A stretch of DNA of 64,000 nt from an uncultured Oscillospiraceae bacterium (GCA_964607135.1 CAZSIV010000002.1:45347-109346), one strand, 5' to 3'; shown: positions 21,627-24,855, numbered from the stretch's first letter. The notes: a model not told the origin generated them from the sequence alone. Numbers and translations: made by a program.

Positions 21627-21653
21627 AACTTCATGACAGGTTGTCGTGAAGTT
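21627..21653. repeat. Lox-like palindrome, site B
   Basis: AACTTCATGACAG-G-TTGTCGTGAAGTT with two arm mismatches. Confidence 0.55.
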
Positions 21654-21675
21654 GTTTTCATCTGTAAAAGTGTGA

Positions 21676-21925
21676 TATAATAACCTCACGGCATGAGCCG
21701 AAGCCTTGCAGTGCAAGCCTTCGGAGACTTAAGAGAACATTGTTCCATGCAAAACCGTGGCTATGCACGGTTTTGTTGTAGGCGCTTCGCGCAATCATGG
21801 TATAATAACCTCACGACATGAGCCGAAGCCTTGCGGTGCAAGCCTTCGGAGACTTAAGAGAACATTGTTCCATGCAAAACCGCGGCTGTGCACGGTTTTG
21901 TTGCAGGCGCTTCGCGTAATCATGG
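21676..21925 (+). repeat. Two tandem 125-bp units, each an extended -10 promoter + palindromic hairpin + terminator-like hairpin (candidate small RNAs)
   Basis: Units 21676-21800 and 21801-21925 differ at only a few positions. Each starts with TGnTATAAT. Each contains a CCGAAGCCTTGCA-G-TGCAAGCCTTCGG palindrome and CAAAACCGTG-loop-CACGGTTTTG followed by TTGT. A third TGgTATAAT at 21923-21931 precedes fic. Confidence 0.6.
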
Positions 21926-21967
21926 TATAATAATAACAATTACTTTTCTGTATAAGGAGGTTGTTTT

Positions 21968-22708
21968 TTGAGCTTATATGAAAAAATCGACCAGTATAAA
22001 GCGATACTGGATGAAAAACGGCCGTTTGAATCTCCTGTCCTGAAGCAGTTGCAGGATTACTACCGGATCGGTTTAACCTATTCCAGCAATGCGTTGGAAG
22101 GAAATACGCTCACCATCAGCGAAACAAAGGTGCTGTTGGAGGATGGGTTGACTGCAAACGGCAAGCCCTTAAAAGACACCTTTGAAGCGCTCGGACATGC
22201 GAGAGCCTATGATTTCATGTTCTCTTTGCTGCGGAAGCATGAAATCACAGAGCAGGATACAACGATGCTGCACCGATTATTTTATACCGGCATTGACGAT
22301 TCACAGGCCGGTCAATACCGCACCGAACCCGTCTTTATTACCGGTTCCAGTTTTCCCGTTTGCGAAGCGGGACACATTCGCGCAGAAATGACGGGATTGT
22401 TTCGCTGGATAGACAGCGAGCGTGGGCGTTATCATCCGGTCGAGTTTGCGGCTGAACTACACAAACGGTTTGTGTTTATCCATCCTTTTATTGATGGGAA
22501 CGGTCGGGTTGCCCGGCTGCTGATGAATGCCGCTTTGATTCAGGACGGCTATATGATTGTCACCATCCCCCCTGTACTCCGCATGGAATATATCGGGTTG
22601 TTAGAAAAAGCCCATACCGACGCTACGGATTTCATCAATTTTATTGCGGAACAGGAATTGGAAAGCGAAAAAGATATGATGCGGCTGCTGCATCTTCCGC
22701 GTTCATAA
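21968..22708 (+). CDS. fic: Fic/DOC-family protein (class II, N-terminal inhibitory helix)
   Basis: Catalytic motif HPFIDGNGRVARLL and the inhibitory motif S-N-A-L-E-G ([ST]xxxE[GN]) at residues about 39-44. TTG start 7 nt after AAGGAGG. Confidence 0.85.
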   Translation: MSLYEKIDQYKAILDEKRPFESPVLKQLQDYYRIGLTYSSNALEGNTLTISETKVLLEDGLTANGKPLKDTFEALGHARAYDFMFSLLRKHEITEQDTTMLHRLFYTGIDDSQAGQYRTEPVFITGSSFPVCEAGHIRAEMTGLFRWIDSERGRYHPVEFAAELHKRFVFIHPFIDGNGRVARLLMNAALIQDGYMIVTIPPVLRMEYIGLLEKAHTDATDFINFIAEQELESEKDMMRLLHLPRS

Positions 22709-22720
22709 TACTACAGCAAA

Positions 22721-22746
22721 GGGAAGCGAAAACGCTTCCCTTTTTT
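22721..22746 (+). terminator. Rho-independent terminator
   Basis: GGGAAGCG-AAAA-CGCTTCCC followed by TTTTTT. Confidence 0.65.
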
Positions 22747-22752
22747 GCTTGT

Positions 22753-22779
22753 AACTTCGCGACAGTTTGTCGTAAAGTG
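22753..22779. repeat. Lox-like palindrome, site C (degenerate)
   Basis: AACTTCGCGACAG-T-TTGTCGTAAAGTG with four arm mismatches. Confidence 0.45.
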
Positions 22780-23085
22780 TTTAAGAATAATATATTCGGG
22801 ACAACCCAGAATCCTATATGCCCTAATTATGGGTATATAGGTAAATAATGTATAAAAGCTGGTTATTTATTATATTTTCACAAATAAAAACGATATATAT
22901 TTTAGCGGTTTATATCAACCATTAAATATATCATTACTGTTCCGACCTGCATACTTTTGCTTTTCACCTTGGGAAAGTTTTGGAATAATATTATGTGAAT
23001 GTTTCTTCTCTTTCGCCGCCCCCAGAGCGTTTTGTACAAGTTTTGTATGAAGCAAATTTTTCGTAAAGCAAAGGAGAAGATAAAC

Positions 23086-23970
23086 ATGAGCGTAAAAGAA
23101 ATTACCGAATGCAGGATGTTGTACGAACTACTGGATACCTGGCTGCTGATATACAAGCTTGGACTGGTAAAAGAAACCACTTACCGCTGCTATGCTTGCG
23201 CGGTGAAGAAAATCAAAGAATACCAGACAGATATGCCGCTTGGCCTGTTTGGAAGCGTGAATTTTAAAAGTTTACTTTATCAGTTGATGAACGACGGCTT
23301 ATCTAAAAGCACGATAACAAAGGTTCATATCTGTATCAAGAGCGCTTTTGATATCGCTGTAGACTCTGGAACGGCAGCCCGCAACCCTGCCTATAAGGTT
23401 TCGGTTCCTCAAAACGCGCCGGAAAAAAAGATAGAAGCTCTGACGGTTCCCCAGCAAAAGCAGGTAATAGACGCTTGTCATGAGACGATGTATGGCGAAT
23501 ATGTCTTGTTTCTCATCTGTACCGGACTTCGGATTTCAGAGTTTATCAATTTGAGATGGGATGATTATGATCAGTCAAACAGTTGTTTGAAGATTACCCA
23601 AAGCAAAACAGAGGCGGGCATTAGAATCATCCCCCTGCTCCACCCTGCCGAGATCATATTAACCTTACAGCCCCGTATTTCAGAATATATTTTTTTACAA
23701 CAAAATGGGAATCAAATTACAAAGTCCGTTATGCGGCGATTATATGAACGATTGAGAAGATTAACAGGGATTCGGGAGATTACCAATCATGTTTATCGTC
23801 ATACTTATGCGACCCGCGCGGTTGAACAACATATTGAGTACACGGCACTGGCAAAAATTTTGGGACATACTAATCCGGCGTTTACGATGCAGCGGTATGT
23901 TACTCCGGATTTGGAGCATTTAAAAGAAGAGGTACGGCGGCTGGATACTGGAAAGTTTGTGGAGCTATAA
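23086..23970 (+). CDS. Tyrosine site-specific recombinase (small, Xer/phage-integrase family)
   Basis: Catalytic residues are readable: TGLRISE (Arg), HVYRHTYAT (H-x-x-R-H) and LGHTNPAFTMQRYV (His...Tyr). AAGGAG RBS before the ATG at 23086; the ORF opens at 22999. Confidence 0.85.
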   Translation: MSVKEITECRMLYELLDTWLLIYKLGLVKETTYRCYACAVKKIKEYQTDMPLGLFGSVNFKSLLYQLMNDGLSKSTITKVHICIKSAFDIAVDSGTAARNPAYKVSVPQNAPEKKIEALTVPQQKQVIDACHETMYGEYVLFLICTGLRISEFINLRWDDYDQSNSCLKITQSKTEAGIRIIPLLHPAEIILTLQPRISEYIFLQQNGNQITKSVMRRLYERLRRLTGIREITNHVYRHTYATRAVEQHIEYTALAKILGHTNPAFTMQRYVTPDLEHLKEEVRRLDTGKFVEL

Positions 23971-23998
23971 TTTTACAGGTGTTCTCAAAAATCAAAAA

Positions 23999-24025
23999 GG
24001 GAAGCAAGAAGCGCTTCCCTTTTCT
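23999..24025 (+). terminator. Rho-independent terminator
   Basis: GGGAAGC-loop-GCTTCCC followed by TTTTCTGTTTT. Confidence 0.55.
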
Positions 24026-24031
24026 GTTTTC

Positions 24032-24058
24032 AACTTCGTGCAGACTCTGCACGAAGTT
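24032..24058. repeat. Lox-like palindrome, site D (perfect)
   Basis: AACTTCGTGCAGA-C-TCTGCACGAAGTT. Identical to site E over 32 nt including the flanks. Confidence 0.65.
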
Positions 24059-24088
24059 ATTTTTTTCTTTATTATTTACTCTAACAAA

Positions 24089-24709
24089 CTACTTTTTCAG
24101 TTTACGTTCTAACGTTGCTACTTCCTTGTTCAGTTCTTTATTAGTTTGAATCATCTGTTGCTGGGCTTTTTCAAATTCATAAAGATTAACCGCTTCTTGG
24201 ATGTTCGTCACTCGTCTGTTATCGACGTACTCACAAAATTTTTCTACCGTCGATAGATTTCGATATGCCGGAGGTACAATAGAATTATTCAACTTTCTTT
24301 TGATAGCATCCTCCTTCGCTAACGCCTGCTGCCATTCACCCGAAAGAAGTCTCATACGTTGTAATACTTTCTCATCGTTCCGGCGTACATACTGAATTAT
24401 ACGAAACACAAGGTGAACTAAGCCCCAGATAATTACAAGGCAAATTTCAAGCGCAATAATAAAAACAACCGCTGAAAGTAATCCTGAAAGGATTTTATTA
24501 AACCAATCCCAAGACTTATTAACTGCGCAAACCGCTAATATAACGGCAACCAGAAAAACCAGCATCGCACTTGTCTTATGCCAAAATGAAATATTAAGCT
24601 TATAAAGCGGATTTCCAACGTGACGCAGAGCACGTCCAATTACCTTTGTTTCATAGTTAGCGTCTTTCAATTCTACCAAAGCATCGTAAGTCTCTTTTAT
24701 ATTCAACAT
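24089..24709 (-). CDS. Membrane protein with C-terminal coiled coil, function unknown
   Basis: 206 aa, AT-rich, with two central TM helices. It is the only reverse-strand gene in the ICE part of the window. Confidence 0.55.
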   Translation of the reverse strand: MLNIKETYDALVELKDANYETKVIGRALRHVGNPLYKLNISFWHKTSAMLVFLVAVILAVCAVNKSWDWFNKILSGLLSAVVFIIALEICLVIIWGLVHLVFRIIQYVRRNDEKVLQRMRLLSGEWQQALAKEDAIKRKLNNSIVPPAYRNLSTVEKFCEYVDNRRVTNIQEAVNLYEFEKAQQQMIQTNKELNKEVATLERKLKK

Positions 24710-24828
24710 AAATACACCTCAAAACTAATCACGAAACTTTGATACCTTAAGATTTATCTGGTTATCATCTCTCCAGCATATAAAGTGACGAAAAGAAAAT
24801 CAGTTCAGACGTTTTGATGTTAGCGGTC

Positions 24829-24855
24829 AACTTCGTGCAGACTCTGCACGAAGTT
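24829..24855. repeat. Lox-like palindrome, site E (perfect)
   Basis: AACTTCGTGCAGA-C-TCTGCACGAAGTT. Confidence 0.65.

Follow-up and report, generated by a model that had tools for sequence, protein, structure and literature searches.

We analysed a 64,000-nucleotide stretch of DNA (the window) from an uncultured Oscillospiraceae bacterium, the first ~25.6 kb of which belong to an integrative and conjugative element (ICE). This element contains a family of 27-nt palindromes, each made of two 13-nt arms around one central nucleotide. The family is real and is linked to parB, the partition gene; it borders almost every accessory gene unit in this lineage, and units are gained, lost and re-ordered there. 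We propose that the palindromes are a putative parS-like dyad to which ParB would bind, multiplied within the element, with or without use as crossover sites. Judged from sequence comparison, this proposal has about an even chance of being right.

The window contains five copies of the palindrome (no strand assigned), which we call A (359-385), B (21627-21653), C (22753-22779), D (24032-24058) and E (24829-24855). These are exactly the sequences and positions given in the original prediction, which had been made from the sequence alone. Chance predicts none of them; the pattern of D, with up to three mismatches allowed, has three matches in the window against 0.00 expected (100 shuffles). A looser pattern, AACTT-N17-AAGTT, recovers all five copies together with one non-palindromic chance match at 52301, and with it no copy was found in the ~38 kb of ~60% GC chromosome in the window. 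All five copies lie within the ~45% GC conjugative element, each at the border of a gene unit. The predicted split into two subtypes was also correct: A (AACTTTGTGCAGA-A-TCTGCACGAAGTT), D and E have GCAGA-N-TCTGC at their centre, and B and C have GACAG-N-TTGTC. D and E share the same sequence and are both perfect palindromes, A has one G.T pair, B has two, and C is the weakest copy, with two G.T pairs and two true mismatches. The units between the palindromes hold what had been described, namely tandem repeats and fic between B and C (the left and right borders of the fic unit), a 294-aa tyrosine recombinase between C and D, and a 206-aa membrane protein between D and E. C lies 9 nt past the fic terminator; A has a small membrane-protein gene with its terminator on one side and, on the other, the ribosome-binding site of a 580-aa AAA_28 gene; and E is the final copy ahead of a non-coding unit and tRNA-Lys. 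No Rfam family matched the palindromes (only tRNA-Lys and a pemK-motif match were found), and a literature search for the site sequences, or for dif-like or integron-like systems in Clostridial ICEs, gave nothing relevant and no published description.

The symmetry of the site is maintained by compensatory changes, that is, it is selected. We collected 29 distinct family members by their outer 6+6 bases alone, so that the inner seven pairs are free of search bias. Over these 29 sites 96% of arm cells pair, and six of the 13 pairs are changed on both sides. None of 500 shuffles reached this level of symmetry, and no slid register came close. The family motif is AACTTC-N15-GAAGTT, in which the outer six pairs are nearly invariant and covariation occurs at positions 7-8 and 10-13. 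Of the 27 positions, 13 vary hardly or not at all, among them 11 of the 12 outer ones, and the palindromes contain no bulges. The pair 13-15 is always complementary and cannot form in a hairpin with a one-base loop, which argues for recognition of the duplex as a dyad.

The palindrome is found again and again inside parB. Among the matches listed by a loose scan of viral contigs, which was mostly noise and was filtered for symmetry, eight had at most one arm mismatch against 0.56 expected, and five of these eight lie inside parB (L023, L027, L031, L081 and L082). The palindrome also lies inside parB in the metagenome matches L153 and L158, and in L174 and L175. The internal site is perfect in L158 (2694-2720) and in L175 (2174-2200) and L176, and has one mismatch in L174 from Butyrivibrio (10441-10467) and two in L023 (2174-2200). 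Its inner arms are GTGCACT/AGTGCAC in L158, GGGCACT/AGTGCCC in L175 and CGCCACT/AGTGGCG in L174. In these independent elements the internal copy is thus perfect or almost so and its inner arms covary, and so it seems that the symmetry of the DNA is kept, not the peptide. The ParB family is large (at least 8000 clusters scored, all with E <= 1e-20), and the best 120 of these homologues mostly have TSxT[EQ]xxK at the spot of the palindrome. In peptide variants such as TSCTECTK, TSGTECRK and TSATQWRK, pairs of residues change together like a translated palindrome (C/T, G/R, A/W-R, G/P).

The internal and external copies show a complementary distribution. Where parB has an internal copy (L174, L175 and L158) there is no second copy within +-10 kb. 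In the family of the window ICE, ParB has no internal copy, and the sites are external. L160, which is 89% nucleotide-identical to window 389-12149, has parB at 456-1442 and a GCAGA-type palindrome from 1444, 1 nt past the stop codon; a GACAG-type copy follows past the next two small genes. Similarly, L094 encodes a ParB without the internal copy and has two external copies at gene borders. The canonical 16-bp parS, TGTTNCACGTGNAACA, was not found with up to two mismatches in the window ICE, L160, L158, L174, L175 or L154, and no other perfect palindrome was found near parAB in these elements. As the circular ICE joins the right-end array to the parAB end, all copies would come to lie in one region around parAB and the attachment site.

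Several features of the parB loci may be mentioned here. In L023, a 94-kb contig classed as viral, an open reading frame (ORF) resembling the IS200/IS605-type TnpA (5759-6172) lies a few kb from the parB-associated palindromes. In L166, L168 and L174 the element start, which reads DUF6462-DUF6462-ParA-ParB, is preceded at a distance of ~500 nt by a gene for a Tn916-type integrase (~6700-8600), and L167 has a chromosomal gene in place of that integrase. An integrase gene at this position may reflect tandem elements or an assembled circular junction.

Comparison with relatives showed that units differ exactly at the palindromes, in agreement with the prediction that these delimit gene units. Ten contigs (L001-L010) carry a 90%-identical homologue of the recombinase on the same backbone as the window, and in them the distance from the RepA_N gene to the recombinase gene is 602 nt, with one palindrome. 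By BLAST, the fic unit (window 21658-22751) is missing from L001, L002 and L003, and B and C both align with the one palindrome of L001 (6560-6586). Thus, the fic unit was inserted or deleted with exact duplication of the site. At A, homology with L160 begins ~3 nt past the palindrome and the upstream genes differ; L160 has no palindrome at the position corresponding to A, and the window unit at 13-347 was not found at the corresponding position in L160-L165. Two other indels in the same ICE served as a control. These involve a 231-aa gene (17079-17828) and a Phd/ParE pair, and neither is at a palindrome; the element therefore also changes by other routes. The original prediction had likened the region to an integron- or shufflon-like cassette array, and only part of this idea stood. 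Relatives do gain, lose and re-order units at the palindromes, but integron features are lacking, and no shufflon-type inversion was seen in ten relatives. The D-E unit has the same orientation in all relatives containing it, and the opposite orientation was found only for a 43%-identical homologue of its protein, at another position in L154, the array described next.

L154 is a related metagenomic contig, recovered when metagenomes were scanned with the arm pattern. Its initial 278 nt correspond, reversed, to the non-coding region beside E (77% identity), and it is therefore the right end of a related element. L154 contains 22 family palindromes of both inner subtypes; they occupy eight of the nine junctions of its nine genes, and none is inside a gene. 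Some form clusters in which the palindrome and a conserved 20-nt linker are repeated in tandem with a period of 47 nt (2.5 and 5.2 copies) and the two subtypes alternate in a 94-nt super-period; others are solitary. The genes encode three different Fic proteins, a zeta-toxin-like protein, three membrane proteins, a tyrosine recombinase of 343 aa and a protein that matched no family. Several of them begin ~30 nt past a palindrome, which leaves no room for a promoter. One of the Fic proteins is 85% identical to that of the window and has its own 3' terminator and palindrome, but different neighbours. The homology comprises the ribosome-binding site, the coding sequence, the 3' terminator and the palindrome, and ends there on both sides; the fic unit is a module that occurs in two different site-bounded contexts, those of the window and L154. 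One membrane-protein unit is common to the window and L154 (the 43%-identical homologue of the D-E protein, inverted relative to the backbone), and another to L154 and L159. The junction equivalent to E has one palindrome in the window and two each in L154 and L159, and the cargo order of L154 is shuffled compared with both. Other arrays bound different cargo: in L139 a BsuBI/PstI-type endonuclease and an Eco57I-type methylase lie between two palindromes, followed by a PBECR4 nuclease; in L142 two genes lie between two palindromes; and L157 carries an EcoO109I endonuclease and a phosphatase-like gene. The specific D-type and B-type patterns had no matches in viral contigs.

Six independent assemblies (L005, L006 and L011-L014) end at a family palindrome or at most 40 nt past one, consistent with a repeat or with junctions that are mixed within the populations sampled. 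Half-site chimaeras at B and C would be a signature of site-specific exchange, but the left arm CATG, though rare, is found more than once, in the window, L160 and L154, and repeated C-to-T changes can produce it.

Based on these comparisons, we propose a model in which the 27-bp palindrome would be the cis site of the ParA/ParB partition module in a large family of Firmicutes conjugative elements. Most relatives would have one copy within the parB coding sequence. In the lineage of the window ICE the internal copy would have been lost from parB, with a copy present directly past the stop codon, and further copies would have spread into two cargo regions, which flank parAB in the circular form. 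ParB dimers may bind these sites for segregation of the excised, RepA_N-replicating form. Alternatively, or in addition, ParB might keep the toxin-like cargo beside the sites silent or insulated, in the manner of KorB on RK2. The sites could also act as crossover points for the exchange of units, either via short-homology recombination or via the Xer-like recombinases of the arrays. We suggest crossover at the sites because the site, or the site with its linker (27-47 nt), is the only conserved sequence in the variable region.

A ParB-bound cis site is the simplest account of four findings taken together: the link to parB, the complementary distribution of the copies, their tandem arrays and the lack of dependence on the type of recombinase. 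The same sites occur across arrays with unrelated recombinases and in elements that have only Tn916-type or serine recombinases; many elements in which the palindrome is internal to parB have no Xer-like enzymes, and those with a single copy within +-10 kb use Tn916-type integrases. Tandem arrays of sites, such as those of L154 with their 47-nt period, are also known from plasmid centromeres such as sopC of F. Several observations weigh on the other side. In this genome parB is located beyond the window. The palindrome has 27 bp and not 16 bp, and it shares with canonical parS only TTC...GAA. In L166-L168 from Butyrivibrio the internal copy is degenerate (nine of 13 pairs), and no other copy was found within 10 kb. 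As two inner subtypes occur in one element, a single reader must ignore positions 10-13, yet these stay symmetric. Binding of ParB alone leaves unexplained why the sites bound units and why L154 has 22 copies among its cargo. Moreover, an Xer-like recombinase gene lies inside every array of sufficient length that was found via the recombinase, and also in L154, which was found via its sites. Finally, RepA_N genes lie just as near to the sites, so the binder could be another protein of the module.

An extension of the proposal, to which we attach a low probability, is that Gram-positive conjugative elements contain a platform for the capture of cassettes, in which mobile units of one to three genes, moved by diverse Xer-like recombinases, would attach at the essential ParB palindrome of the element. 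Each capture would duplicate the site and so lead to integron-like arrays of toxin, defence and membrane genes beside the junction of the attachment site and parAB. ParB on the copies would then also control the captured genes. There would be a parallel with IMEX exploiting dif.

The original prediction took the palindromes to be recombination or binding sites of the small recombinase, and the main rival explanation is close to this, namely that they are core crossover sites of the Xer-like recombinases of the arrays, with 10-11 bp arms and a 5-7 bp centre, and not ParB sites. Units would leave as circles and enter again at other copies, as has been proposed for the dif modules of Acinetobacter or for integron cassettes, and the inner subtypes would be incompatible spacers; such use can coexist with ParB binding. 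The presence or absence of the fic unit with exact site duplication speaks for this explanation, as do the occupied junctions, promoterless units and shuffled cargo of L154. The recombinase gene is flanked by palindromes in L001-L014, L139 and L142. The recombinases of L011-L014 are 60% identical to that of the window, and those of L139 and L142 38%, and here too the flanking palindromes keep part of the sequence: in L011 one reads AACTTCCGGACAT-G-..., and those of L139 and L142, which in L139 surround the restriction-modification unit, read ...GGTGCGACAA-A-TTGTCGCACC.... The recombinases are Xer-like and have no arm-binding domain, so they should act on simple sites of ~28 bp, for which a 27-bp dyad is the right size, and the sites of an array have a common polarity, with a constant left arm (CGTG) and a variable right arm. 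However, the recombinase of L154 is only 22% identical to that of the window, yet its sites have the same sequences, and four of the eight genomic relatives of the recombinase, the more distant L135, L136, L138 and L140, have no such sites. The family is mostly single-copy, in parB of elements without such recombinases, where an insertion would destroy parB. Cargo-free tandem arrays of 47-nt period cannot arise via excision and insertion of cassettes, a symmetric centre gives strand exchange no direction, and the indels of the 231-aa gene and of Phd/ParE are not at palindromes. The enzyme also occupies the slot near the tRNA expected for an ICE integrase, and no other integrase was seen in the ~34 kb of element examined (the window and L160, as far as parA); it may therefore be the ICE integrase. 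The 294-aa protein may be a cassette recombinase, the ICE integrase or a resolvase. We consider it unlikely that the palindromes are its crossover sites and not ParB sites, and the claim that they belong to the small recombinase did not survive these comparisons. The fallback offered with it was an operator family: given the link to parB and the occurrence of the same sites with unrelated recombinases, an operator is at least as good a reading as recombination.

The remaining explanations concern other readers of the palindrome. The copies might act as single-stranded hairpins on the sense strand, either in RNA, as units that stabilise, process or insulate transcripts in the manner of REP/BIME and BOX, or in the transferred single-stranded DNA. 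Among the arm cells that are not Watson-Crick pairs in backbone sense, 32 are G.T and 8 are A.C, and the predicted RNA hairpins are more stable on the plus strand than on the minus strand (A, -16.4 versus -12.6 kcal/mol; B, -19.4 versus -13.4; C, -9.6 versus -8.6). The excess of G.T could reflect selection on a sense-strand hairpin or, equally, a C-to-T bias on the sense strand, which in this element has a positive GC skew, and the counts are not independent events. Copies lie just past stop codons or terminators and just ahead of ribosome-binding sites; the clusters alternate two types with a conserved linker, as BIME do; and the number of copies at one junction varies, as at that equivalent to E. 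Nevertheless, the invariant outer six pairs with a covarying inner stem point to a protein that reads sequence, the pair 13-15 remains complementary though no hairpin can form it, none of the five copies is in the 38 kb of chromosome, as a genome-wide REP family would require, and no HUH (RAYT-type) gene was seen in any array. We therefore regard hairpins as a quite unlikely explanation. It is very unlikely, in our judgement, that the sites form an origin, iterons or operators for another protein of the backbone, such as the initiator RepA_N or a repressor. RepA_N is the protein common to most palindrome-bearing loci, and its gene adjoins parB in elements of Lachnospiraceae type and adjoins B in the window. 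The conserved position of the palindrome, however, is inside or abutting parB and not repA, and AT-rich iteron-like repeats of another sequence already lie just past RepA_N (window 21450-21520; L011 9767-9793). To the alternative named in the original prediction, a conserved family of intrinsic terminators, we give hardly any credence. D is followed by a T-run, ATTTTTTT, and was flagged as terminator-like, but A, B, C and E have no T-run; a canonical terminator hairpin of its own already stands 8-11 nt upstream of each of A, C and D; the promoterless genes of L154 lie downstream of up to six copies; and some copies lie within parB reading frames.

The window recombinase is rare: at E < 1e-20 only five homologues were found among 5.8 billion proteins. 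The best matches of the array recombinases to family models were XerA, XerC and XerD, far below the family cut-offs, and the nearest solved relatives in a PDB sequence search were XerA, an XerC-like protein, Tn1549 Int, XerH and XerD; Cre was not among them. Viral scans based on the recombinase gave only distant phage integrases. In L135 (9007-13424), L136, L138 and L140 the recombinase gene is flanked by near-identical repeated terminator-like hairpins, AAAAGCGGAAG-N-CTTCCGCTTTT, and not by 27-nt palindromes.

The palindromes share features with several known systems. Well-known sets of ParB-type sites are the chromosomal parS inside spo0J, the 43-bp tandem repeats of F sopC, the KorB O_B sites of RK2 and the dispersed centromere sites of N15. 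Like such sets, the palindromes have dyad symmetry, lie inside or abut parB on an element that encodes ParB, and occur both in tandem arrays of fixed period and as dispersed intergenic copies; like the KorB operator (13 bp), the window palindrome has an odd length. Unlike parS, they have 27 bp instead of 13-16 bp, do not match the canonical sequence, covary in their inner arms and come as two subtypes per element. We know of no description of parS as bordering exchangeable units of cargo. In that respect the arrays are closer to the dif modules of Acinetobacter (pdif sites, XerC/XerD), which have been proposed to be exchanged by site-specific recombination on evidence that is mainly comparative, as it is for the arrays described here (PMC6449649, PMC13141974, PMC11705084). 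In both systems Xer-sized sites (27 and 28 bp) flank modules of one to three genes, such as toxins and restriction-modification systems, and the same module appears in different contexts. The two systems differ in that the arms of the palindrome are alike around a symmetric centre, whereas pdif has separate XerC and XerD arms (11 bp each) around a 6-bp spacer; in that the window-type recombinases are element-encoded and diverse, and their sites are also tied to parB; and in that the dif modules are on a small Rep_3 plasmid and the palindromes on an ICE of Oscillospiraceae-type Clostridia. Thus, the arrays resemble parS in location and dif modules in the layout of their cargo. We also considered mimicry of the host dif and rejected it: dif of Bacillus subtilis, ACTTCCTAGAATATATATTATGTAAACT (PMC3025954), shares with the palindrome only ACTTC, in its XerC-side arm, and this 5-nt resemblance to a Firmicutes dif comes with no likeness to the XerD arm.

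Integrons offer a further parallel, as rows of mostly co-oriented, often promoterless single-gene units with toxin or defence cargo, in which each unit ends in an imperfect to perfect palindrome with conserved outer and covarying inner bases (PMC9024848). The differences are substantial. The palindrome has 27 nt and is conserved in sequence, whereas attC has 57-141 nt, is conserved in structure only and has extrahelical bases. Integron-integrase models gave only partial matches of 35-44 bits to the recombinases, against cut-offs of 265-435; no attI or Pc was seen; and the recombinase gene is itself one of the units within the array. The arrays are therefore not integrons, since they have no IntI, 27-nt conserved sites and a recombinase within the array. 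REP/BIME of enterobacteria and BOX of pneumococci are clustered extragenic palindromes. The present family is similar in lying just past genes, in its alternating variants and conserved linkers, and in its variable number per junction; it differs in being confined to the element (five copies in the 26-kb ICE and none in the 38 kb of chromosome), in having a copy inside parB and in the absence of any RAYT gene seen. Given this absence from the chromosome, the palindromes are not a REP family. The likeness to lox sites that had been noted holds for the outer bases of the arms, AACTTCGT...ACGAAGTT(AT), which are identical over 8 nt, and for the occurrence of a dyad on a plasmid-like replicon. It does not extend further: loxP has a 13-8-13 arrangement (34 bp, not 27 bp), the palindrome has no asymmetric spacer, and the recombinase is Xer-like and not Cre-like.

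If the palindrome is a ParB site, it would define a 27-bp site for partition or as an operator, not described before, in gut Firmicutes and in a very large family of conjugative elements, for which >8000 ParB clusters were matched. The site embedded in parB would dictate a variable peptide of ParB and would thus be a case in which a constraint on DNA overrides protein sequence. Accessory genes arranged as exchangeable units at one short site would provide a testable route for the shuffling of cargo among the ICEs of gut Clostridia; this cargo includes Fic proteins, zeta-like toxins, restriction-modification systems and nucleases. To our knowledge, integrons are not known in ICEs of abundant gut Clostridia. 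The motif AACTTC-N15-GAAGTT is in addition a simple marker for such elements and their cargo borders in metagenomes.

The element stretch has ~45% GC and gives way to ~60% GC chromosome at a step at ~26 kb, where it adjoins tRNA-Lys and lepA. It encodes a VirD4-type coupling protein, a lysozyme/M23 hydrolase, a MobL relaxase, a RepA_N initiator and two Phd/ParE pairs. The GC contrast, the conjugation genes and the tRNA-Lys/lepA boundary together identify it as the right part of an integrated conjugative element. The variable unit that ends at A (13-347, plus strand) consists of a 100-aa membrane ORF (13-315) and a terminator hairpin (321-347). The RepA_N gene (20477-21355, plus strand; PF06970, E = 2.9e-18) is the last backbone gene ahead of the palindrome-bounded units.

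The fic unit (21658-22751, plus strand) comprises 2.1 tandem copies of a small-RNA-like 125-nt repeat upstream of fic (21676-21933), the fic gene itself (21968-22708) and a terminator (22718-22743). Each copy of the repeat has a TATAAT box, a GC-rich hairpin and a terminator, and similar units occur at many places in records of Subdoligranulum variabile; upstream of the 85%-identical fic gene of L154 they are absent. These repeats may represent a family of small RNAs, which could be antitoxin-like partners of Fic. In BLAST searches of plasmids and phages with window 20400-25650, only this repeat (in Subdoligranulum records) and a Fic fragment matched. The recombinase gene (23086-23970, plus strand; Phage_integrase family) is followed by a bidirectional terminator hairpin (23995-24023, no strand assigned), and the terminators of fic and of the recombinase gene are near-identical to each other (GGGAAGC-N-GCTTCCC). 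The gene for the 206-aa membrane protein lies on the minus strand (24089-24709).

Beyond E lies a conserved non-coding transcription unit of ~590 nt (24915-25502, plus strand), which extends from a strong promoter (TTGCAA-17-TATAAT) to a terminator-like hairpin (25489-25502) and contains the Rfam pemK-motif match (25345-25424; 41.1 bits, gathering score 34.8). This unit always adjoins the end of the palindrome array; its identity to the counterparts in L154, L155 and L159 is ~77%, and to that in L001 96%. The integration site is probably the tRNA-Lys(UUU) gene (25611-25686, minus strand), which has its 3' end towards the element. The gap ahead of the relaxase operon contains two adjacent long hairpins (16952-17026), TTTCCGTGTTGATCCGC/GCGGATCAACACGGAAA and an 18-1-18 palindrome, which are likely the oriT. 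The hairpin at 16990-17026 was considered as a long member of the 27-nt family and rejected, as its match to nine of the 13 arm bases was not significant. The two indels of the ICE that are not bounded by palindromes, those of the 231-aa gene and of the Phd/ParE pair, begin just past these hairpins, which are conserved in L001 and L003.

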